Source: a virus
IMG/VR virus record: IMGVR_UViG_3300031552_000003
Location: 11,422 to 75,421 of that record
DNA length: 64,000 nt
Strand: one strand, 5' to 3'
The position numbers were made by a program, and so were the translations under genes. Below the pieces are notes generated by a model. The model did no database searches and was not told where the DNA came from. It worked only from the letters and a program-made list of their open reading frames with translations. Below, in pieces: positions 2 to 60,681 of this stretch; within the stretch, counting starts at the first letter, position 1, and every line of letters starts with the position of its first letter.

Positions 2-256
2 ATGTTTCCTGATAAAATAGTAAAAAGAATTTATTTATATGTGCTTCCTTTGTTTTTTAGTATTGTTTGTTTGTATTATTTTATTTGTTTATTTAAAATT
101 AATATATTTCAAGGAAGTGATGCTGTAATGTGGGGAAAAATATGGAATGGTATTTTTTTGTTTTGTTTAAGCATAAGTTTGTTGATAATCTTTATTTATA
201 TAAATAGATTTAAAATTTTAAACTATGCCAGAAAGTTTAAAGAAAAAATTAGCTAA
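2..256 (+). CDS. Small two-TM membrane protein (holin-like candidate)
   Basis: Two hydrophobic stretches and a basic C-terminus. Confidence 0.4.
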   Translation: MFPDKIVKRIYLYVLPLFFSIVCLYYFICLFKINIFQGSDAVMWGKIWNGIFLFCLSISLLIIFIYINRFKILNYARKFKEKIS

Positions 257-668
257 TATTTTGCTATCTGCATTAGTTTCTTTTGTAGTGTTTTTATTAG
301 GTGTATGGGTAACTGATATAAAGGCAAGTAAGAAAGATATACAAACTGCATTAAATGAACGTCCAACAACAGATTATATAGAAAATAAATGTCAGAAAAT
401 AACAGATTATGTTATTATGCAGGATAATGAAATTAAAATTACTGTGGCAGAAAATAAAAAGGAAGCTTCTCAACAACGACTTGATATGGAGAATAGATTT
501 TTTAAATATATAGAGCAAATATTAAAATCAAATGAAATAACACAACAAGATGTTCGTGACTTAAAAATATATATTTTGAATGGGCAAAATAAACAAAAAA
601 CTGTGGGCAATTTAAAAAATATGGGATTATCTTTAGATTCTTTGTTATTTCCTAATATTTTTAATTAG
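225..668 (+). CDS. N-terminally membrane-anchored coiled-coil protein (lysis accessory candidate)
   Basis: Single TM ILLSALVSFVVFLLGVWV followed by a helical charged region. Confidence 0.4.
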   Translation: MPESLKKKLANILLSALVSFVVFLLGVWVTDIKASKKDIQTALNERPTTDYIENKCQKITDYVIMQDNEIKITVAENKKEASQQRLDMENRFFKYIEQILKSNEITQQDVRDLKIYILNGQNKQKTVGNLKNMGLSLDSLLFPNIFN

Positions 669-3088: not shown

Positions 3089-4702
3089 ATGTGGAAAATA
3101 TCAGATGTAGAATCTCACAAAAAGGGGCTTTCCCCTGAGCAAAAAAAGAGGTGGGTATCTGTGGCTAATTCTATTTTAGCTAAATGCATAAAAGATGGAG
3201 GTTCTGATAGTAGTTGTGCCCCTACAGCTATAAGACAAGCCAATAGTGTGGTTGCAAATAATCAACTTTATGTAAATACATCAAATACAAATTACACTAT
3301 AAGAGAGGAGATACACCAAGGGCGCAAGCATATTGTTGTTCCTGTTGTGATGATGGTAGAAGGTGTGCACAATGGAAGTATGGGGCCTTTGTTGCATACT
3401 GCGGAAGAACTTGGCAAGTATCCGGAATCATGGAACGGTATTCCGGTAGTAATAAATCATCCTGTAAACAATGAAGGGGATAATATTTCGGCAAATTCTC
3501 CTGAAATAATTGATTCAGAAGTTACAGTTGGAAAAGTATATCATACACATTTAGTTGATACTAAATTAATGGCTGAAGCTTATTTGGACGAAGAAAAACT
3601 AAACAATATTTCTTCCAATGCTTTGTTGGCAATTATGAATGGAGATCCACTTGAAGTTAGTATAGGTGTTTTTAATGATACAAATATTGAGCCGGGACAA
3701 TGGCATAATGAAAAATATAACGCAGTAGCTATCAACCATAGACCAGACCATCTTGCTCTTTTGCCCGGGGGGATTGGTGCTTGTTCGTGGGAAGATGGTT
3801 GTGGTGTTCGTGTAAATCAAAAAAAGAAAGGAGGTAAAAATATGGTTGTTGATGATGCAGCACAAATTAATGAGGAGAAACAAAAACATATACAATCTAT
3901 TCTTGATGCTAATATGGATCAAGGATATAGGTATATGATAGAATCTGCTCAAAATATGTTGAATAAGATGGATTCGGAAAATGCTTATCATTATTTGGAA
4001 GATATGGATAATACTCATGTGATATATTCTAAAAGAGATAAAAATGATAGGAAAATGCTTAAACAATCTTATGAAATAAATGAAAGCGGGGTTCCGACAT
4101 TGATTAACAATCCAATTGAAGTAAGACAAAAAATAGATTATGTGCCTGTGGTTACTCACATGGTGAGAAGTAAATTTAATGTTAATAAAGGAGGTAAAGC
4201 AATGAATAATAAAGAAGAATGTGGGCAGTGCATGGAGAAAGTTGTAGCTATTATAAATAGTAATGCTGCTGGAATGACTGCTGAAAATCGTGAATGGCTT
4301 TTAACACAGGATGAGCCTGTTTTGGACATGCTTTTGTCCAAGAAACCTGTTGAAAAGAAAGTAGAAGTATCTGCAAAACTTACTTCGGATCAGATATTGG
4401 ATGCAATGTCTGCTGAGGATAAGGCTGCTCTTGCTTTTGGTAGAAAACAATTAGCTGATAAAAGAGCTAATATGATAAAAGGGATTCAGGACAATACTGA
4501 AAAAGATTTATGGCCGGAAGCTGTTTTAAATACCCTTAGTGAAGATTTTCTTGAAAAACTTTACAATTCTGTAAATGTTAATAATAATGATGATGTAGAA
4601 GCTAATTATGCCTTAAATGGCAATTCTCATCGTATGAATGTTAACTTTAATGATGAGGAAGCTTTGTATCCGGTTGGAGTAGAAATTGAAACTACAAAAT
4701 AA
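3089..4702 (+). CDS. Prohead protease/scaffold (DUF2213-like)
   Basis: WNGIPVVINHP, EVSIG, PDHLALL and GACSWEDGCG motifs; helical C-terminal part; strong SD AGGAGG. Confidence 0.8.
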   Translation: MWKISDVESHKKGLSPEQKKRWVSVANSILAKCIKDGGSDSSCAPTAIRQANSVVANNQLYVNTSNTNYTIREEIHQGRKHIVVPVVMMVEGVHNGSMGPLLHTAEELGKYPESWNGIPVVINHPVNNEGDNISANSPEIIDSEVTVGKVYHTHLVDTKLMAEAYLDEEKLNNISSNALLAIMNGDPLEVSIGVFNDTNIEPGQWHNEKYNAVAINHRPDHLALLPGGIGACSWEDGCGVRVNQKKKGGKNMVVDDAAQINEEKQKHIQSILDANMDQGYRYMIESAQNMLNKMDSENAYHYLEDMDNTHVIYSKRDKNDRKMLKQSYEINESGVPTLINNPIEVRQKIDYVPVVTHMVRSKFNVNKGGKAMNNKEECGQCMEKVVAIINSNAAGMTAENREWLLTQDEPVLDMLLSKKPVEKKVEVSAKLTSDQILDAMSAEDKAALAFGRKQLADKRANMIKGIQDNTEKDLWPEAVLNTLSEDFLEKLYNSVNVNNNDDVEANYALNGNSHRMNVNFNDEEALYPVGVEIETTK

Positions 4703-4717
4703 GAAAGGAGAGTAATT

Positions 4718-5233
4718 ATGAAATACAACACAATTAAATTAAAGAATTATTTACATATTCGTGAAGAATATACTGCGGCAGAAGCTATCCTTCCGGGGAT
4801 GTTGGTTGAATTAAACAGTTCCGGGACACTTCAAAAACATTCAGGGGCAGGACAAACAGCTCTTCCTATGTTTGCGATAGAAGATGCTTTACAAGGTAAA
4901 GCGATTGATGAAGCTTATGCAGCTTCAGATAAAGTACAAGTATGGGTCCCTACAAGGGGGGATATTGTATATGGTTTGCTTGCAGATGAGGAAACTGTTG
5001 TTATTGGTGATTTTGTTGAAAGTAATGGGGCTGGGTTTCTTCGTAAATTAGTCCGTACAAATGAGAGTTGGGAATCTGATGATGATGCCCCGGGTGGAGG
5101 GGATCATACTATTTATGATATGCACATTGTAGGACAAGTGCTTGAAGCTAAAGATTTATCTTCTCTTGAAGGTTCTGAATCCAGTGCAGCTACGGCCACA
5201 ACTACGCAGTACACTCAAATTAGAATAATGTAA
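4718..5233 (+). CDS. Head decoration/cement protein
   Basis: Between scaffold and capsid genes; AAEAILPGMLV beta-rich pattern. Confidence 0.7.
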   Translation: MKYNTIKLKNYLHIREEYTAAEAILPGMLVELNSSGTLQKHSGAGQTALPMFAIEDALQGKAIDEAYAASDKVQVWVPTRGDIVYGLLADEETVVIGDFVESNGAGFLRKLVRTNESWESDDDAPGGGDHTIYDMHIVGQVLEAKDLSSLEGSESSAATATTTQYTQIRIM

Positions 5234-5252
5234 TTAAAGAAAGGAGAAGAAA

Positions 5253-6356
5253 ATGAAAAACAACGTAAATGTTGATTTATTAGGTAATGGAGGCGGGAAT
5301 GGACAGGTTGCCAAGATGTTATTGTCTAATGGCAAGCTTAATCCCGGGACAATGCGGCCTTTTATTGGAAATGATGGTAATTCGTATATAACTTATTATA
5401 AGGGGGGTAATCCAAATAAACCGGCGAATTATGTCACACAGCGTATTAATTCAAATGCCACACTTCGTCGTGACGAATGGAAAGCGTTAGATGAATCTTT
5501 GCTTGAAGTAGCTCGTCAACGTCTTGGAGGGGTTCAGGATTTGATTGATAGCGGGCTTACCTATAATTTAGGTAATGCAATGGGTACTACAGTACTTGAA
5601 TATCATGATGTAAGCGATGCAATGGAAGCTGACCTTACTATGGATGGTATTACCCGTGGTAAAAATGATCGTCCTGATTTTAATTATCATTATTTACCTA
5701 TTCCCATAATTCATGTTGATTATGAAATCAATGCTCGTGAATTAGCGGCAAGTAGAAATCTTGGTAATCCTTTGGACACAATTGATGCTCAAACTGCTGC
5801 AAGAAAAGTAGCTGAAAAGTTAGAAGCGATGTTGTTTACCAATACTGATTATTCATTTGGTGAAAAAGGATCGAATGGACGAAATACTATCTATAGTTAT
5901 ATCAACCATCCTGACAGGAATTTGGTTACATTGGATATACATTGGGACGATTCTCCGATTACCGGGGCATTGATTGTACAGGATGTTCTTGCATTAAAAC
6001 AGGCATCTATTGCTGATTATCATTATGGCCCGTGGAAATTATACATCCCGACCAATTATGAAACAGTGCTTGATGGTGATTATGATTCTACTACACCTGG
6101 TACAACTATTCGTGAACGTATTATGAAAATTGCTGGTATTACCGGTATTAAAGTAGTAGATACTTTACCTGCGGACAATGTGCTTTTGGTACAAATGACG
6201 AGTGATGTTGTTCGTTTAGTCCGTGGCATGGGTATTCAGAATGTGGAATGGAAGTCAGAAGGCAATATGGTGACAAATTACAAAGTCATGACAATTCAGG
6301 TTCCGCAGATTCGCAGTGATTATAATAAACGGTCAGGAATTATCCATTTGGCTTAA
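5253..6356 (+). CDS. Major capsid protein (HK97 fold, encapsulin/linocin-like branch)
   Basis: 367 aa; TLRRDEWKALD, LPIPIIHVDY, YGPWKLY motifs; strong SD; synteny. Confidence 0.9.
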   Translation: MKNNVNVDLLGNGGGNGQVAKMLLSNGKLNPGTMRPFIGNDGNSYITYYKGGNPNKPANYVTQRINSNATLRRDEWKALDESLLEVARQRLGGVQDLIDSGLTYNLGNAMGTTVLEYHDVSDAMEADLTMDGITRGKNDRPDFNYHYLPIPIIHVDYEINARELAASRNLGNPLDTIDAQTAARKVAEKLEAMLFTNTDYSFGEKGSNGRNTIYSYINHPDRNLVTLDIHWDDSPITGALIVQDVLALKQASIADYHYGPWKLYIPTNYETVLDGDYDSTTPGTTIRERIMKIAGITGIKVVDTLPADNVLLVQMTSDVVRLVRGMGIQNVEWKSEGNMVTNYKVMTIQVPQIRSDYNKRSGIIHLA

Positions 6357-40742: not shown

Positions 40743-41132
40743 TTAAAATGGACATTTTTCTTCTCTCATTTTCCATTCATCATCTATATCTAATAAAACA
40801 CCTCTTGCTCTTTTTGAATTATCAGAAACAGTAATAGCTCGAATATTATCCTTATGATACCCTTGTGATGGGTCTATTCTATCTATAGATAGACAATTTG
40901 CTGTTCTACCTTTTAATTTATCATATCCAGTTTGATTACAAAATTCTTTAAAATCATTAAGAGTTATTGTGACTTCTTTATTACGCCTACGTGCATTGTT
41001 TTTAAATTTATCATACCAATAAGCAAGAGGGTTCATTTCTTTTTTTCTTCTTGATTTACAAGTCCAACATAATTTTCTACCTTTACTTGCTTTATTTTTA
41101 CATCCTGGTGTAATGCATTTTTTTTGTTTCAT
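40743..41132 (-). CDS. HNH-like endonuclease
   Basis: SIDRIDPSQGYHKDNI...N; N-terminal Cys cluster. Confidence 0.75.
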   Translation of the reverse strand: MKQKKCITPGCKNKASKGRKLCWTCKSRRKKEMNPLAYWYDKFKNNARRRNKEVTITLNDFKEFCNQTGYDKLKGRTANCLSIDRIDPSQGYHKDNIRAITVSDNSKRARGVLLDIDDEWKMREEKCPF

Positions 41133-42592
41133 ACTAAATCATATTTACTTTTTTCATACCATGAACCATCAACAGGAGCTAAATCAGCATCAACTTCTAA
41201 AGGAATATCAATCCAATCCCAATGTTTAGGTAAATCAATAGTTGTAATTTTATGCACAGTTTTACTGATTAACTTTAATTCTTTTGGATTTACATCAATA
41301 ATAAGTGAATCATGTACCTGTCCAATAATTTTACTATCAAGATTATTATCAATAATAAATTTATCTAATTCAATTAATGAAAAAAGCAAACAATGGAAAG
41401 CAGAACCTTGAATCGGATAATTACTTACTTCTTTTTTGTTCATCACACCTGAACAACGAAACCCTGTATAAAAATCAAAATAACCTTTCTTTTGATATTC
41501 TTCAAACCAATCTATTTTCCATTGTTTATACTGTTTATACCTAACATTCCAAAAATTTTCTTCTATTTCTTTTATGTGTTTCATAAACCCAGTAGCAACC
41601 CATCCTTTTTCAGTTTTTTTGACTGAACCAAATTCTTTTATTCCTTTTGATATTAAATGATCTGATAAATAATAAGGTTTAAATGGTTTTCCCATCTCAT
41701 CAACAATAGGACCTTGTCCATATTTCCATTTTCCTGTTTTTGGAAGTTTTCCCCAGTTATTTGCAAGGTTTTCAGCAGTATTTTTATAATAATCCCCATA
41801 AAATTCAGCAAATACAAAGCCATTTTTTGCAGCTTGACGAAGTAATTTGTGCCCGGGTTTATTTTTATCAAAATTATCAATCATAAATATTTCTTTAGCC
41901 ATATCAGTATGCATATCACCATGTAAAATATCATATCCTAATTTTTCATCTTTATTATAGCAATAGCTTATACGTACTTCGAGTTGGCCAAAATCAACTT
42001 CTAACAATTGATGCCCTTTACGTGGAAATAAAGCACTTCGACACAATTTTTGCATTTCAGCATCCCGTATGGGAATATTTTGGAAGTTTGGAGAATCTGC
42101 TGAACTACGAAAAGTTCTGACTAAGTGCAAGTTATAAAATGGATGTATAATTCCATCCACTTGTTCATTGTAAAACCCGGTTAAAACATCAATTGATTTT
42201 TTAATCTTTCCTTTTTCAAGCAATAAATCTAATTCTGGTATTTCTAATTGTTTTAATGCTTCTTCGTCAGTAGAGCCTTTCTTGCTTTCTCCTGTTTTAC
42301 CCCCTTTAGTATATTTAACAGGAGTAATTCCCTTTACTGTATAAAGAAAATGCCCTAATTGAATTCCTGAATTGATATTTATTTTGCCTTTCGTGTGTTT
42401 TTGCCAATCTTGAAAAAATTCAGATTCTTTAAATTTATGTTCAAAGCGTTCTATTTTACGTTGCAGGAAATTAAGTTTTCTTTTTACATATTCCACATCT
42501 ACTCGGAACCCTTGCATTTCTGCACGTGCCAAAGCAAAAATACCATTATGAAAAAGTTGATAAGCTTCGTTACTATTTGGATGTACTTTCAT
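41129..42592 (-). CDS. polA: Family A DNA polymerase, polymerase domain only
   Basis: PNFQNIP, motif A DFGQLEVR, motif B RQAAK...FYG, NYPIQG, motif C VHDS. Confidence 0.93.
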   Translation of the reverse strand: MKVHPNSNEAYQLFHNGIFALARAEMQGFRVDVEYVKRKLNFLQRKIERFEHKFKESEFFQDWQKHTKGKININSGIQLGHFLYTVKGITPVKYTKGGKTGESKKGSTDEEALKQLEIPELDLLLEKGKIKKSIDVLTGFYNEQVDGIIHPFYNLHLVRTFRSSADSPNFQNIPIRDAEMQKLCRSALFPRKGHQLLEVDFGQLEVRISYCYNKDEKLGYDILHGDMHTDMAKEIFMIDNFDKNKPGHKLLRQAAKNGFVFAEFYGDYYKNTAENLANNWGKLPKTGKWKYGQGPIVDEMGKPFKPYYLSDHLISKGIKEFGSVKKTEKGWVATGFMKHIKEIEENFWNVRYKQYKQWKIDWFEEYQKKGYFDFYTGFRCSGVMNKKEVSNYPIQGSAFHCLLFSLIELDKFIIDNNLDSKIIGQVHDSLIIDVNPKELKLISKTVHKITTIDLPKHWDWIDIPLEVDADLAPVDGSWYEKSKYDLV

Positions 42593-42596
42593 AATT

Positions 42597-43829
42597 TTAA
42601 AAAGGTAAAGGTGAGATTAAGTTTATTTGTTTCATGAATAATCGAAACTCGTTAATCGAATCATATGCACAATATTTTAACAACTTTTCTTTTCCTCCAG
42701 GCATTTTCAAAAGTTCTTCTATTTGATTAATATCATTAGCACTATTTGAAACTTTAGGACGTAGATACGGTGCTATTTCACTATCATAATCAACAATTCC
42801 AAAATTCACATAGTTTTGAAATTTCAACCCGGTTATGCCAGTCCTGTTATCTAAAATATGTGCTGCTTGCATTGTATCATGATACCACCCTTTCACTTCT
42901 GTTCGTAACTTTACTTGTGACCAAACATGCTCGTATTTACAATTTTGAGCTATTTTATTAATGTTTTCATTATTAAGAAAATTAAGAAATGGTTTTAATT
43001 CTCTTCGTGTTTCAGGCATCATAAAAACATATGCATGATTTTCTGAATCTGCAATAGAACAACAAATTATTTTATGTCCTTCTGCATGTGGTTTCAACCC
43101 GGTAGTTTCATAATCAAATGCAGCAAAATTAGGAGAAATATGCGTTTTAACGGAACCTATTTGAGTATATTCAATTTCTTTTAAATCAGTTATAACTTCA
43201 ATCTCAGGTTCTTTCCATATTGGAAATGGTTTATCAAGATGTTCGATAGCTTGTCTCAAATCAAGCTTCCAAATAGTTTCAATTTCATCACGTTGTTCAT
43301 TTAAAATAGTAGAAGGATTAAAAATAGGGCAAATCCATGTTTTAAAATCTTGGTCTGGAATTGCAAATCCTCTCCATTTATCAATATTCCCTAAGTCTTT
43401 TTTCCAGCGATTTCCTATGATGCTATAAAGAGCAGAATTACCAAGCAAAATAATTACTTTTGGTTTATATTTTTCAATTGCTTTTAATACCATTATAGAG
43501 CGACAACAATCTATTTGATGATTTGTAGGTTTATCAGTAGTACAATTTACAGCATTTAAGTTTATACAATCTTCAAATAAATCAATACCTAATTTTTCAT
43601 AAGCCCGTTGTAATTTTCTACCTTCTTTTCCTTGCCATTGTTGCCCACGTTCACTATCTAATTCAGATGGACATTCTCCTATGTTCATTATGCCTTTTTT
43701 GAAATTTCCATAAGGTTTCATTTTTGGATTTAATATCTTTTTGTATAATCCGCAAGATGAGCATGAGAATATTTTACCTGTTGGCCTGGTTTTAGATTCA
43801 GTTTGTTTTTGTGTGAAAAATCCTGCCAT
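42597..43829 (-). CDS. Family-4 UDG-like domain fused to 3'-5' exonuclease (N-terminal part of split PolA)
   Basis: CSSCGL, IGECP, NAVNC, ILLG; then Exo I FDYETTG, Exo II QNCKYE, Exo III YCAYD. Confidence 0.85.
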   Translation of the reverse strand: MAGFFTQKQTESKTRPTGKIFSCSSCGLYKKILNPKMKPYGNFKKGIMNIGECPSELDSERGQQWQGKEGRKLQRAYEKLGIDLFEDCINLNAVNCTTDKPTNHQIDCCRSIMVLKAIEKYKPKVIILLGNSALYSIIGNRWKKDLGNIDKWRGFAIPDQDFKTWICPIFNPSTILNEQRDEIETIWKLDLRQAIEHLDKPFPIWKEPEIEVITDLKEIEYTQIGSVKTHISPNFAAFDYETTGLKPHAEGHKIICCSIADSENHAYVFMMPETRRELKPFLNFLNNENINKIAQNCKYEHVWSQVKLRTEVKGWYHDTMQAAHILDNRTGITGLKFQNYVNFGIVDYDSEIAPYLRPKVSNSANDINQIEELLKMPGGKEKLLKYCAYDSINEFRLFMKQINLISPLPF

Positions 43830-43844
43830 TTTTTAGTTATTATT

Positions 43845-44048
43845 TTATACATTAATTTGAATATCTATTTTACTAAGCAGCAATTCAAAATCTTTTTGAC
43901 TGACATGTTTAGGTTTTGAAATATAAAGCATCGGAAAAGATGAATTACTTTTATTTGAATGGCCCCAAACAATGCCTGATTTAATACCGAAAATTTTTCT
44001 TCTATTTTCGTCAAATTCAAATGATTTTATTGATTCTATAATATTCAT
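43845..44048 (-). CDS. Hypothetical protein
   Basis: Small ORF in accessory array. Confidence 0.5.
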   Translation of the reverse strand: MNIIESIKSFEFDENRRKIFGIKSGIVWGHSNKSNSSFPMLYISKPKHVSQKDFELLLSKIDIQINV

Positions 44049-44105
44049 AATTAAAATTGTACGGTTTAATATTTTAAACTGTTGTTATTTAGATGTTAGT
44101 GCCAA

Positions 44106-44672
44106 TTATAAAACCGCCCGCTTGATATCAAAGTCGCATTTACGAATTTTGCACATACGCCCATCGGTTTTGTGATGAAAAACAATTCCTTCAATATCTA
44201 ATTCTGAGTTTGATAAGTAGTTTTTTAACCCATCAAAAGAAAAGTCAGTTACTGGCAATATTTCAATTCCATGTTTAACTAAAATATGCCCAGTTAAATG
44301 TTCTGGGTTTCCTTGTAATTTTTCGCCACAAAGTTCGTAAGTTCCATTTTCTTTGTTTTTTAAGGCATCAAAGCCAACAAAATGCCATTTATCGGTTGGG
44401 TTATTTCGGTCGCATTTAATCCAATGTGGCCAGTGTCCTGTTATTTCATCAGGTTCTTGGCATGGTATCGCATTTGCTGGTACTTGTTTGCCTTTTTTTA
44501 CATCATAGCGTTTATATAATTCGCCATTAATAATTGCGGTGGCAGTTCCATCAAACTTGCGTGTAGGAATACCTTCGCCATCAATTACCCATTTGTTTTC
44601 GGGTGCAATTTCATTAATTACCCTGCTTAAATCATTCGGGTCTTTTTTGTAAAGTGTGCTAATTTTCTTCAT
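44106..44672 (-). CDS. ATP-dependent RNA ligase-like nucleotidyltransferase (DUF5565 / C12orf29-like)
   Basis: Motif I RKFDGT, YELCG, EGIVF, MCK. Confidence 0.7.
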   Translation of the reverse strand: MKKISTLYKKDPNDLSRVINEIAPENKWVIDGEGIPTRKFDGTATAIINGELYKRYDVKKGKQVPANAIPCQEPDEITGHWPHWIKCDRNNPTDKWHFVGFDALKNKENGTYELCGEKLQGNPEHLTGHILVKHGIEILPVTDFSFDGLKNYLSNSELDIEGIVFHHKTDGRMCKIRKCDFDIKRAVL

Positions 44673-44856
44673 TGTATTTTAATTTTTAAAAGTTGATAAT
44701 CAAATAAATAACTGCCACTAACACCGCGTATAGGTAATGTGGGTTTTTCGTTTAATTCATTCATTTGTTTATATCTATTAAGTTTATACTAAATTGATAA
44801 GTTTAAAATTTTAAACCGTTGTTTTTGCTACGTTTCTGCTCATGAGTAATGTGACA

Positions 44857-45057
44857 TTAATCACTCTGCACATGCACAATACCACTATCAAGTAGGCATA
44901 TTTCAATCTGTTTCCCATCTTCAAGTAACAATTGTAATTCATCACCATCTTCATCCTTGTGTAAGTATATATCTACAATCTTTTTACCAAGGATTTCTTT
45001 GGAGTCGAGCATCCCATATTCTATTGTTTTGCTTGCTTTATATTTTCGTTTTCCCAT
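44857..45057 (-). CDS. Hypothetical protein
   Basis: Small ORF between repeats. Confidence 0.55.
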   Translation of the reverse strand: MGKRKYKASKTIEYGMLDSKEILGKKIVDIYLHKDEDGDELQLLLEDGKQIEICLLDSGIVHVQSD

Positions 45058-45135
45058 AATATTTGTTTTTAAGTTTATACTAAATTGATAAGTTTAATAT
45101 TTTAAACTGTTGTTATTGATATGATAGCAAACATA

Positions 45136-45381
45136 TTAAGAATTCGCTTCGTCTAATAGTTCAGAAGCATTGCCTTTCATATATTCACTAATTTTTTGAT
45201 ATGATTTTGAAACACTATCGTTGTCAAATCCACGAAATTTAACTCTGGCAGGATAAACAGATTTTACTACATCACCATCCATAACAAAAACTATTGCCCA
45301 CCCAAACACATGTAATATTTGATTAATGAAAAGAAGCAAACCTGTACTTCTAAATTCTGACCATTCTTTTTTTGTTACCAT
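45136..45381 (-). CDS. Conserved-looking hypothetical phage protein
   Basis: WSEFRSTGLL..INQILHVFGWAI...YPARVKFRGF. Confidence 0.65.
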   Translation of the reverse strand: MVTKKEWSEFRSTGLLLFINQILHVFGWAIVFVMDGDVVKSVYPARVKFRGFDNDSVSKSYQKISEYMKGNASELLDEANS

Positions 45382-45456
45382 TTTGTTTAAATATTTTATT
45401 TATGTATTTAATTAATAATCAGATAAAAAACAGCTGATAACACGTAATAAACAATG

Positions 45457-45672
45457 CTATAACTTCCCGCTTAATATATCTAATCCGACTGAAGATACTG
45501 TGTTATCAAATACTCTTGGTTTTGATTTACTTGCTTTTGCAACAATGTAAGCATCACGTAGTTTTTGCATTGCATCAATAAAGCTTTCATAATGTTTTTC
45601 ATCTAAGTTGGTAATATCTACCAAATTACCTGTACTTGTTTCCTGTACTAAAATTTTGTTAAAGAATCCCAT
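45457..45672 (-). CDS. Hypothetical protein
   Basis: Small ORF; shares upstream repeat with 44857 ORF. Confidence 0.55.
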   Translation of the reverse strand: MGFFNKILVQETSTGNLVDITNLDEKHYESFIDAMQKLRDAYIVAKASKSKPRVFDNTVSSVGLDILSGKL

Positions 45673-45767
45673 AATATTTGTTTTTAAGTTTATACTAAAT
45701 TGATAAATGTATTCATTCTATTAAGTTTGTGAGGGCTACACATCATATATTCAACATTATAAACAAA

Positions 45768-45986
45768 CTAATTTCCAAAGCCACTAATTAAGTATTTTAG
45801 TAATTGAATACATTTCAACGTGCTTGATTCGGCTTTTATTTTATCAACTATTTTTTCAAGTTCTAATTCATAATCAGATAATCCAGATAATTGAGCAGTT
45901 TCTTGCATCCATTCTACTGTCGATTTTCCACTACCGACACTAAATGAAGGACGTAATTCATCGTTAAATCTATTTTCTTTATTCAT
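45768..45986 (-). CDS. Hypothetical protein
   Basis: Small ORF in array. Confidence 0.5.
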   Translation of the reverse strand: MNKENRFNDELRPSFSVGSGKSTVEWMQETAQLSGLSDYELELEKIVDKIKAESSTLKCIQLLKYLISGFGN

Positions 45987-46010
45987 TATTTGTCTGTTTT
46001 TGTAGTGACA

Positions 46011-46214
46011 TTAAAGCGTAATTTCAAATATACCTTCTATTTCTGCTTTAGTGCCATAATCAACTTTTCCAATATTAAGTTCATAAGCATCTTCATACAC
46101 AACTATATATCTATCTTTAAACCCAGTTTTAATTACGTGTATTAATTCTGGTTCATTTTGTAATCTAAATGTTTTAGTTACATTACCGCTTTCAATCCAT
46201 TTTAAGTTTTCCAT
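46011..46214 (-). CDS. Hypothetical protein
   Basis: Small ORF in array. Confidence 0.5.
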   Translation of the reverse strand: MENLKWIESGNVTKTFRLQNEPELIHVIKTGFKDRYIVVYEDAYELNIGKVDYGTKAEIEGIFEITL

Positions 46215-46321
46215 AATAATAACGCCACATAATAATGCATTGTCTTTATGGTCTTTTTTAAGTTTATACTAAATTGATAAGTTTAAAATTTTAAACTATT
46301 GTTATCGATATTAGATACAAT

Positions 46322-46543
46322 TTAATGTCCACAATATTGCGAAATGAGTTTGATAATTTCATCTTTAAGTACATCTGGCATATTGGAAGTTATTAACGTT
46401 ATCGGTTCATCAATGGGATATTTTTCCAAAATTATTGGTATTTCATCATTTGGTTTGCTTCCAATCATCCTAAACTGGTTGTATGTTAAATTATCAAACT
46501 CAAACTTAATTTCTTTTTCTGGTATTTCTAAAATTGCTTTCAT
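46322..46543 (-). CDS. Hypothetical protein
   Basis: Small ORF in array. Confidence 0.5.
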   Translation of the reverse strand: MKAILEIPEKEIKFEFDNLTYNQFRMIGSKPNDEIPIILEKYPIDEPITLITSNMPDVLKDEIIKLISQYCGH

Positions 46544-46579
46544 AATTAGTATTATAAATTGTGACTAAAAGCTAACTTT

Positions 46580-46834
46580 TCATATTATTATCGCACGCAT
46601 TGTATCTATTATTTCTTCGGTTGTAAATCCAATCTTACTTATCATTCCACCAACTTTCACCATCGCTTCTTTTATTTCTTCATCTGCCATATTAGAAGTA
46701 TCATGTCCGAAAAAAGCAAGTTCGGATCTAAATTTAGCAATTACTATTCGCTCTTGTTTTTCCACGCTTAAAAAGCGCATAACAATGCGTAAAATCCATT
46801 GCTTACGTAGTAGGTAATTTGCAAATGTTTTCAT
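46580..46834 (-). CDS. Hypothetical protein
   Basis: Small ORF; reads through a GTTATGCG core (IVMR). Confidence 0.5.
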   Translation of the reverse strand: MKTFANYLLRKQWILRIVMRFLSVEKQERIVIAKFRSELAFFGHDTSNMADEEIKEAMVKVGGMISKIGFTTEEIIDTMRAIII

Positions 46835-46844
46835 ATAATTAACA

Positions 46845-58187: not shown

Positions 58188-58712
58188 TTAAGATTTATAT
58201 ATTATTACCTTTTGGATGAAATTTAAATATTGCTTTGCATATATGCAATTTTCACCATATACAGTAATTACACGGTTTTTAAATTCATCAATAGTCCCTT
58301 TAAAACAACCACATATAACCAATTCTTTTTTATCAGTCCAATATACAGTAGTTTGCGCATTTCTTGATCCTATTTTTGAAGATACAATTCGCTGTGGGTT
58401 TTCTTCAAAATCACTGCAACCACTGCAACCACTGCAACCACTGCAACCACTGCAACCACTGCAACCACAGCAACCACAGCAACCACAGCAACCACTGCAA
58501 CTACTGCAATCACTGCAACCACAGCAACCACTGCAATCACAGCAACCACTGCAATCACTGCAACCACTGCAATCACTGCAACCACTGCAATCACTGCAAT
58601 CACTGCAATTTACTAAAGATTTACTTTTTAAAATGGCTGTTTCTTCTGTTTCAAATATACAGTTCCATTTATTATTGTTTTCATCGATCCAATAATTATT
58701 TATTTTTTTCAT
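58188..58712 (-). CDS. Cys-rich CxX tripeptide repeat protein with DUF5758-like C-terminal domain
   Basis: 22 CSG/CSD/CCG-type units; C-terminal GSRN...CGCFKGTIDEF...Y. Confidence 0.75.
   Translation of the reverse strand: MKKINNYWIDENNNKWNCIFETEETAILKSKSLVNCSDCSDCSGCSDCSGCSDCSGCCDCSGCCGCSDCSSCSGCCGCCGCCGCSGCSGCSGCSGCSGCSDFEENPQRIVSSKIGSRNAQTTVYWTDKKELVICGCFKGTIDEFKNRVITVYGENCIYAKQYLNFIQKVIIYKS
58410..58607. repeat. 9-bp tandem repeat, 22 units
   Basis: (AYCACWGCA)n on + strand. Confidence 0.95.
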
Positions 58713-60055: not shown

Positions 60056-60268
60056 TTAATTTTCAGAAAACTTTTCATTTATTACTACTTCAAAATCAAT
60101 ACCGGCCAAGATATATTCTATACTATCAATAGTACTATCAAGTTTTTCACTTGCTATATCCATTTTAAAAACAGTAGGCAGTATATACTTTCCCTCAAGA
60201 ATAGTATCTAAATGTTTTTTTGCTTCTTTTACATCGTTTGGGTTGATAATAAAAAATACTTTTTTCAT
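60056..60268 (-). CDS. Hypothetical protein, paralog of 62012-62221
   Basis: Colinear similarity (FII...DVK...HL.T...P.VFKM...TI..I..IL.GI). Confidence 0.65.
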   Translation of the reverse strand: MKKVFFIINPNDVKEAKKHLDTILEGKYILPTVFKMDIASEKLDSTIDSIEYILAGIDFEVVINEKFSEN

Positions 60269-60315
60269 AATGATTAGAATTTTAAACTGTTATTATTTAG
60301 ATGTTAGGGGCGACA

Positions 60316-60681
60316 TTAAACAGCTACTTGCAAAAGTTCAGCGTTTTGATAAATATTACCAATTACATCAATAAAGCATATTTGTAATTCGCCAATTAAT
60401 CCGTATTGTTTACCGTTACAAAATGCCATAAAACAACCATATTCAAAGTGAACCTCAAATATTTCTTTTTCGGTACCAAGTTTAAAAATGTCACCTTCGT
60501 AAATTTCCTTCCCATTTTTGTCTTTAAGTCCTGTAAATTGCATCAAAATATCCCCATCATCTACTTTTACTTTCCCATTTGAAGCTTCTTTAATTGACCA
60601 TAAATAAGCAATTTCAGTTTCGGGCGAATACATCACTTTTAATGTATTACTGTAAAGTCTAAATTTAATTTCTCTGTCCAT
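60316..60681 (-). CDS. YopX family protein
   Basis: REIKFR, LMQFTGLKDKNGKEIYEGDI, VIGNIYQN. Confidence 0.92.
   Translation of the reverse strand: MDREIKFRLYSNTLKVMYSPETEIAYLWSIKEASNGKVKVDDGDILMQFTGLKDKNGKEIYEGDIFKLGTEKEIFEVHFEYGCFMAFCNGKQYGLIGELQICFIDVIGNIYQNAELLQVAV

Follow-up and report, generated by a model that had tools for sequence, protein, structure and literature searches.

This analysis concerns a 64,000-nucleotide stretch of DNA from an uncultured Bacteroidota phage (the window), comprising bases 11422-75421 of the IMG/VR virus record IMGVR_UViG_3300031552_000003 (75,421 bp, G+C 30%, rated complete), and within it an array of small genes that includes one for an RNA-ligase-like protein. 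It is probable that the ligase gene, together with the pair of inverted arms that encloses it, is one cassette drawn from an integron-like pool that Bacteroidota have in common with their phages, and that the other repeats of the array are duplicated phage control elements and not recombination sites. The evidence that carries this reading comes from an unrelated contig in which the DNA in common with the window begins and ends at the arms, from a family of arm-bounded units with differing cargo, and from a folded site that lies between such units.

The RNA-ligase unit

The arms of the ligase unit, TGTTAGTGCCAATTAT (44094-44109) and ATAACTGCCACTAACA (44708-44723), are inverted and match at 14 of 16 positions, which confirms what an initial annotation of this DNA had read from its letters, and they follow the pattern TGTTAG-N4-AGT... 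on the left (L arm) and ...ATT-N4-CTAAC on the right (R arm). One pair between the two arms of the window is a G:G mismatch, at a position that is C:G in relatives. Taken alone, the inverted repeat is weak evidence, because 14/16 was also reached by 5 of 500 shuffles of the ligase flanks and at least 14 matches are found around 4 of the 109 genes of the genome; its significance derives from the comparison with other contigs.

In contig L042 (= L180), an unrelated 74-kb sequence, identity with the window (90.8%) is confined to 44095-44724, a stretch whose limits are the outer ends of the two arms, and no match was found between the 3-kb flanks of the L042 ligase and the window. Contig L185, from a Lutibacter metagenome-assembled genome (MAG), aligns with window positions 44078-44732, and the ligase copies of L043 and L186 have the open reading frame (ORF) alone in common with the window. 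In these other contexts the ligase protein is 94% (L042/L180), 95% (L185) or 90% (L043) identical to that of the window, and its homologues in prokaryote genomes are nearly all from Bacteroidota. The Pfam RLIG1 model gave the 188-amino-acid (aa) ORF a score of 24.4 bits, slightly below its cut-off. As a separate observation, contig L186, which is binned with a Methanosarcinales MAG, contains two arm-bounded units and a ligase with 92% identity to that of the phage, and probably represents a misbinned Bacteroidota-phage contig.

Upstream of the L arm, the window retains a remnant of the folded site that separates units of this kind. A site with different cargo in contig L123 has a right half almost identical to this remnant, from which the left stem half and the CTAACG core are missing, leaving the window with the core on the L-arm side and half a stem of an attC-like site. 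The truncated site beside the ligase unit fits erosion, and the switch from the remnant to the window's own spacer falls inside a motif common to both, TCAAnnTAGTAnAAACTTAA. At the other end of the unit, the compact spacer of the window comes after CTAAC, and a similar AAATAACAnCAG occupies this place in L185.

A family of arm-bounded units

Searching IMG/VR with the 16-mer of the L arm recovered the same arm pair around differing ORFs of 47 to 188 aa. A general arm scan of 1.59 Mb of fetched loci, in which GTTAG+N10 had to be followed 60-1600 nt on by the complementary N10+CTAAC, gave 85 matches, compared with none in a reversed-sequence control, and these represent ~45 single-ORF units (40 non-redundant). 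The longest ORF runs from the L arm to the R arm in all 45 phage units, and the stop codon of family units lies at the inner edge of the R arm. Several positions of the arms are invariant, namely a T before GTTAG and a G at +10 that faces a T in the R arm, a fixed-position G:T common to all of the 31 distinct arm pairs counted. Equally constant is the R-arm pattern ATT-N4-CTAAC, with G as the next base in 30 of 40 units, and the N4 core takes 20 different values that are always matched within a unit.

The folded site between units

It was found that 20 distinct inter-unit spacers, 93-142 nt in length, share one fold, in which nnCTAACG and a 4-nt bulge lead into a stem of 16-20 bp with a loop of 20-70 nt, and the returning stem is followed by TGTTAGnn. 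An alignment of 18 of these spacers contains compensatory changes in 15 of 22 base pairs, with 90% of cells paired (67% in shuffles) and a covariation score of 0.507 (0.137 in shuffles); none of 500 shuffles reached the observed values, and slid controls collapsed. The strand that carries the phage ORFs folds more stably in 17 of the 20 spacers (p = 6e-5). Two readings of the arms, as a transposon-like pair or as mRNA 5'/3' pairing next to a promoter-like flank, were dropped because the 'promoter-like' and 'terminator-like' flanks pair together on folding.

A covariance model (R1) built from the 18 sites made 53 matches at E < 0.01 in 210 kb of loci outside the training set, in arrays of 4-6 sites. 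Bacterial genomes also contain R1 sites, with at least 40 in a Lutibacter MAG, 6 in a Prolixibacteraceae MAG and 1-3 each in Parachryseolinea, Flaviaesturariibacter and Fluviicola. Clusters of attC sites lacking integron integrases (CALINs) are defined by at least two predicted attC sites, none of them more than 3 kb from the nearest other site (Qi et al., 2023; PMC9892861), and L185, L132, L181, L062, L061 and L135, with 4-6 sites each, reach this minimum. The window does not form a CALIN, as it holds zero full R1 sites and one eroded unit without a cluster; with filters off, R1 found no full site in the window (best E 0.23) and none in the array. Neither did R1 find a site in 359 kb from relatives of the phage's polymerase.

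Limits of exchange

One 290-nt unit is present in seven contigs, and the DNA common to these is an upstream site of ~116-128 nt plus the unit only, ending at CTAAC. This unit has two upstream site types and at least six downstream contexts, all different, and L135 combines the same site and arms with other cargo. The shared stretch of the 290-nt unit therefore suggests that a cassette, read on the folding strand, consists of site, arm, ORF and arm, with its limits just after CTAAC. On the opposite strand the same unit reads GTTAG... ORF ...CTAAC-site-G|TTAG, which is the layout of an integron cassette with the ORF inverted. Among sequencing runs, three salt-marsh metagenomes gave shares of only 0.06-0.14 and no joints were found; no RNA run is listed as a holder.

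Bacterial arrays and candidate recombinases

A chromosome-type array in the Lutibacter MAG contig L221 (4459-11911) has six sites on (-) and the intervening ORFs on (+). Its cassettes have matched ends GTTAGCAAAC...GTTTGCTAAC, and the Pfam-supported ORFs among them encode a redoxin, an Mrr-type restriction endonuclease domain and a member of the beta-lactamase family (PF00144). Because these ORFs are opposite the folding strand, the fold is not tied to the coding strand, which argues for a role at the level of DNA.

A tyrosine recombinase gene was found 1-2 kb from an array in two Bacteroidota MAG contigs. Both products are Xer-like, with NF040815 as the best match (220 bits for one of them), and they score 199 and 75 bits against the integron-integrase model TIGR02249, for which the cut-off is 265. 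The L221 recombinase, encoded by ORF 4459-5649 of that contig, aligns without insertion to XerA/XerC-like solved structures, IntI4 aligns in two pieces, and identity between the two array-adjacent recombinases is only 30%. No tyrosine recombinase was found in two complete unit-bearing phage genomes. Nor is there a PF00589 match in the 75-kb genome of the phage studied here, in agreement with the initial annotation, which had seen no integrase.

Clusters of attC sites without an integrase have been described in phages, including Polaribacter phage P12002L (Qi et al., 2023; PMC9892861). The P12002L_attC1 primer sequence published there is a short site of this family's type, precedes a methyltransferase gene with ends GTTAGGCAC...GTGCCTAAC, and was predicted by HattCI only, having been missed by the Infernal attC model (PMC9892861). 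The neighbouring attC2 of this phage recombined with attI1 under IntI1 (PMC9892861), and the R' of attC2, GTTAGGC, is the 3' end of the methyltransferase cassette. A strict scan of P12002L found no long-arm units; its shorter sites were spotted by eye.

Relationship to integrons and proposed origin of the unit

An attC site has cores RYYYAAC (R'') and GTTRRRY (R') and folds as a hairpin with an R box, an unpaired spacer, an L box and a variable loop, over 57-141 nt. In the family sites the R box has 6 bp and is followed by a 4-nt bulge, a stem of 16-20 bp and a variable loop, an architecture that is found in no window spacer, and their invariant CTAAC...GTTAG equals the inner five positions of both attC cores; the outer two vary, often breaking the R/Y pattern. 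The likeness to the attC sites of phage CALINs (PMC9892861) extends to single-ORF units, imperfect palindromes ending in ...AAC / GTT..., one strand that folds better, limits that appear to lie at the GTT core and the lack of a phage integrase. However, complementarity of the family arms extends over 15-16 nt rather than 7, with the invariant core CTAAC/GTTAG, and the phage site precedes its gene, placing the ORF on the folding strand, whereas the bacterial array L221 has the classical orientation. IntI also has an additional domain, and the recombinases that neighbour the arrays are Xer-like without the IntI insertion. For these reasons, and because a published site of this type was not recombined by IntI1, the family is not a classical integron.

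In the scheme that we propose, a cassette of the pool would carry, on its folding strand, a structured site, a 15-16-nt arm, a short leader, one ORF and a complementary arm ending in CTAAC, and cassettes would be swapped at the GTTAG/CTAAC cores. A host-supplied tyrosine recombinase may act in trans on the folded strand, the candidates being Xer-like and not IntI. The ligase unit (44094-44724, plus the remnant to ~44778) would have been imported from such a pool, common to Bacteroidota and their phages, and its entry may have been via recombination in short motifs common to the unit and the phage's own spacer. The left half of the site and one base pair of the arms would since have been lost, so that the window unit is probably fixed in place. 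The initial annotation had proposed that the genes of the array come from an attC-like pool through a recombinase in trans, with sites that then erode; this proposal stands for the ligase unit, given its GTTAG/CTAAC ends, the breaks at the cores, the truncated site and the lack of a recombinase in cis, but not for the array, where R1 finds no site and the spacer is gene-oriented.

A broader proposal, which we put forward tentatively as a possibility short of a probable one, is that these units represent a distinct and undescribed cassette system of Bacteroidota and lytic phages, with an integron-like build, an Xer-like (non-IntI) recombinase, and cassettes that each have a promoter within the folded site and a private arm code of 15-16 bp. 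During infection, phages that lack a recombinase might then draw on the pool, and the compact TAAC-N12-palindrome spacer of the window might be a second, minimal docking site. If the pool is real, it provides a route by which lytic Bacteroidota phages gain or swap accessory genes, apparently including those for RNA repair and methyltransferases, and by which genes travel as ready-made units with their own expression signals, common to host chromosomes. With the sites, the arms and two candidate recombinases now defined, the system is directly testable.

Several points weigh against the proposed origin of the unit and of the repeats around it. Recombination itself was not observed; the crossover is resolved to ~3 nt only, with the core present in both partners. 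The ligase cargo is linked to three upstream sites (those of the window, L180 and L185), which implies exchange at the L arm too and is not predicted by a strict integron mechanism. Recombinase adjacency comes from two MAG contigs only, one of the genes having a stop codon, and P12002L_attC1 gave no verified recombinants with IntI1 (PMC9892861). As for the repeats, the spacer fits neither the Bacteroidota TAnnTTTG consensus nor sigma-70 convincingly, its promoter role being suggested by position only, and four of the five spacer copies have CTAAC-like pentamers at the aligned position, where older cassette junctions are possible.

A possible role as RNA signals

Much of the above could also be explained if no dedicated recombinase were involved, the arms and hairpins being RNA signals (pairing of untranslated regions, terminators or processing sites of transcription units complete in themselves) in modules that are shuffled by homologous recombination at these short conserved stretches in co-infection, and we judge this explanation unlikely. 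It would draw on the promoter-early stem-loop (PeSL) cassettes of T4-type phages as a precedent (Arbiol et al., 2010; PMC2839356). It also accords with the position of the ORF on the folding strand in 45 of 45 phage units, so that the mRNA would carry the structure, with the G:T positions of the arms, which would be G:U wobbles in RNA, with junctions that fall both at the arms and within spacer motifs, and with complete unit-bearing phage genomes that have no tyrosine recombinase. The bacterial array L221, in which the ORFs are opposite the folding strand, speaks for a DNA-level cassette instead, as do the recombinase genes beside two arrays. In addition, a site is linked to its downstream cargo far more than to what lies upstream (for the 290-nt unit, 2 upstream types vs at least 6 downstream contexts), and the core agrees with the attC R boxes at their inner five positions, one such core having worked with IntI1 (PMC9892861).

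Spacer repeats of the window

The initial annotation was correct in describing a spacer repeat between the units, copies of which were found at 44054-44099, 44753-44830, 45044-45121, 45667-45711 and 46233-46310, and in placing the same sequence at the ligase and YopX stops, both of which are followed by the 28-mer TTTTAAACTGTTRTTATTTAGATGTTAG (44072-44099 and 60280-60307). In gene orientation the spacer reads ...ATAACAAYA-GTTTAAAATWTTAAAC-TTATCAATTTAGTATAAAC-TTAAAAACAAATATT-ATG, and on both strands it is always oriented like the gene that follows. The element also has a compact form, (C/A)TAAC-N12-ACAGTTTAAAAWWTTAAAC-N1-3-ATG, which in the window lies at 44042-44099 and 60262-60310 and is present in one copy each in at least eight unrelated phage contigs (including L286, L287, L288, L291, L295 and L185). 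The compact spacer is readable as CTAACA-17-TAAAAT, a sigma-70-like promoter for a near-leaderless mRNA, as a consensus match only; a sigma-70 scan gave no enrichment (21 found vs 23 expected). The window spacers do not fold as hairpins (z -0.9 to +0.4), the exact 26-nt spacer core is absent from IMG/VR, and Rfam returned nothing relevant in 40-64 kb.

From its sequence and placement, the shared spacer is most likely a promoter/operator plus leader, and we take it to be a regulatory element whose TAAC end may double as a recombination junction. Its parts would be (C)TAAC-N12-ACAG, the palindrome GTTTAAAAWWTTAAAC, and TTATCAATTTAGTATAAAC with the leader, and the TATCAATTTAGTATAAAC element is a candidate transcript start in this phage. 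Duplication of the spacer probably built the array, in which the other eight small genes would be ordinary hot-spot accessory genes, each preceded by copies of the phage-type regulatory spacer.

The claim of the initial annotation that decayed versions of the arms flank the neighbouring genes was not upheld. No second arm with up to 3 mismatches was found in the genome, and the other eight small genes have no arms; ATT-N4-CTAAC occurs near a stop codon with 0 mismatches at the ligase only, and with 1 mismatch at 4 genes against 2.0 expected. Only GATAG (45126-45130) and ATTAG (46307-46311) sit at the spacer position that aligns with GTTAG, and these can equally well be part of the duplicated spacer. 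A further candidate, TGTTATCAGCTGTTTT upstream of the 81-aa gene, was considered as a decayed L arm and is taken as a chance match, there being no matching R arm and the homologues of this gene (61 loci) lying outside arm units.

It is improbable that all nine units and YopX are cassettes from an attC-like pool with eroded sites, the spacer being a leftover recombination site. What suggests such an origin is the occurrence in four spacer copies of GTTAG, GTTAG, GATAG and ATTAG, which coincide when the copies are aligned, the alignment of the spacer's TATCAATTTAGTATAAACTTAA with the loop of the family site in L123, and the fact that the compact spacer always begins 12 nt past the TAAC that ends the upstream gene, although this TAAC can equally be read as part of a -35-like hexamer (CTAACA-17-TAAAAT). 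The spacer is also common to contigs of two salt-marsh runs that then part at GTTA(G), but these are single low-depth contigs and weak evidence. Set against this are the lack of an L arm at the other genes, R-arm-like matches at chance level, spacers that are unfolded, the absence of R1 matches in the window, and polymerase relatives without sites. The ligase is thus the sole such unit of the window, and the other repeats are most simply regulatory duplications that should not be annotated as attC.

That the ligase unit is a miniature inverted-repeat transposable element (MITE), moved by a transposase in trans, is highly improbable despite its 16-nt terminal inverted repeats starting TG... and the identical ends around different cargo, since the hallmarks of insertion sequences and MITEs are lacking (no target-site duplication at any inspected junction), arm cores vary freely between units yet are complementary within each (20 N4 types), tandem units are separated by a conserved folded site, and ORF orientation is fixed in phages.

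Other systems in which small genes lie between short repeats were also compared. In the pdif modules of Acinetobacter plasmids, which Blackwell and Hall reportedly described in 2017, gene modules lie between inversely oriented short sites and are thought to be moved by Xer-type recombinases in trans; the pdif sites are said to be 28-bp double-stranded XerC/XerD sites with a 6-bp centre. The family arms lack such a dyad, and a long folded site lies between the units.

By analogy, PeSLs appear to be the best counterpart of the window's own spacer repeat, in that promoter-bearing intergenic repeats flank small accessory genes in hyperplastic regions of a lytic genome and mark points of gene gain, loss or replacement. 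In the window, the position and orientation of the repeat fit this pattern; the region is a hot spot, and two metagenome contigs share the spacer and then diverge. The window spacer differs in having a 16-bp palindrome and not a stem-loop terminator, and PeSLs have no equivalent of the arms and folded site of the ligase unit. In Cluster K mycobacteriophages, start-associated sequences are short conserved repeats directly upstream of many start codons, with a proposed role in translation initiation (PMC3203893); the window element differs in sequence and host from the repeats as outlined in that source.

Phage genome and insertion hot spot

The phage is of the tailed type and encodes a tape-measure protein, with structural genes on (+) and replication and accessory genes in a long (-) block. 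The same 13 nt (ATAGGGTAAAGGG) stand at both ends of the record (bases 1-13 and 75409-75421), which fits a circularly closed assembly despite the label linear. Strong family E-values were obtained for only two of the nine small ORFs of the array (Table 1), the 188-aa RNA-ligase-like ORF (phrog_14301) and the 81-aa gene (phrog_16397).

Among 29 loci of relatives, selected for a polymerase part 48-59% identical to that of the phage, the two genes that flank the array are 2-55 nt apart in 20, and unrelated inserts of 237-1912 nt occupy the same place in 9. The 3-kb array therefore fills an insertion hot spot. The spacer repeats are absent from the relatives' inserts at this hot spot, and the 16-bp palindrome is absent from the polymerase relatives.

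Table 1. Positions in the window of the ligase unit, the spacer repeats and the hot spot that contains them
Feature	Position	Strand	Basis or relation
Cargo ORF of the ligase unit, RNA-ligase-like nucleotidyltransferase, 188 aa, KFDG motif	44106..44672	(-)	phrog_14301, E 2.4e-70
R arm, sense ATAATTGGCACTAACA, includes stop TAA, ends in CTAAC core	44094..44109	(-)	L042 homology stops here
L arm, sense G-TGTTAGTGGCAGTTAT	44708..44724	(-)	Arm comparison
attC-like site remnant, right stem half (sense CCCACATTACCTATACGCGG, 44724-43) plus part of loop	44724..44778	(-)	Near-identity to L123 site
Compact spacer after ligase, CTAAC-N12-ACAGTTTAAAATATTAAAC, then 67-aa gene start at 44048	44054..44099	(-)	Repeat family D3
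Spacer copy D4 upstream of ligase unit, perfect 16-bp palindrome 44801-44816	44753..44830	(-)	
Spacer copy, 0 nt before ATG of 66-aa gene, palindrome 45092-45107	45044..45127	(-)	
Partial spacer (putative promoter/leader half only) before 71-aa gene	45667..45711	(-)	D5, 96% identical to 45052-45096
Spacer copy before 67-aa gene 46011-46214, perfect palindrome 46281-46296	46233..46316	(-)	
Compact spacer after YopX-like gene (60316-60681), joined to ...CCCCTAAC	60262..60310	(-)	
Palindrome element directly before ORF 225-668 (+)	178..224	(+)	Repeat family D20, exact palindrome match
Hot spot, nine small ORFs (67, 188, 66, 81, 71, 72, 67, 73, 84 aa)	43830..46844	(-)	ORF list, family matches, relatives
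Left neighbour, UDG + 3'-5' exonuclease N-terminal part, split family-A DNA polymerase	42597-43829		
Right neighbour, phrog_947 gene, 336 aa	46845-47855		

Other features of the genome were noted in passing. The DNA polymerase is encoded by two ORFs (window 40743-43829, loci L010-L035); in relatives the two parts are separated by ~1 nt to 2.5 kb, one relative having a further insert inside the polymerase part, and in the window an HNH-type endonuclease gene follows the polymerase. Within the array, ORFs on opposite strands overlap at 46322-46568 (73 aa on (-) vs 74 aa on (+)), and the (-) ORF was taken from context. The large terminase ORF, which lies before the window (L041:1736-5581, genome bases), is 1281 aa long, and its terminase matches are fragmented (residues 40-250, 755-882 and 1192-1274) by endonuclease-like and ribonucleotide-reductase-intein-like stretches, an interruption that suggests inteins. 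Finally, a 9-nt unit (CACTGCAAC and variants) is repeated in ~30 tandem copies at window positions 58373-58651, inside the (-) ORF 58188-58712.

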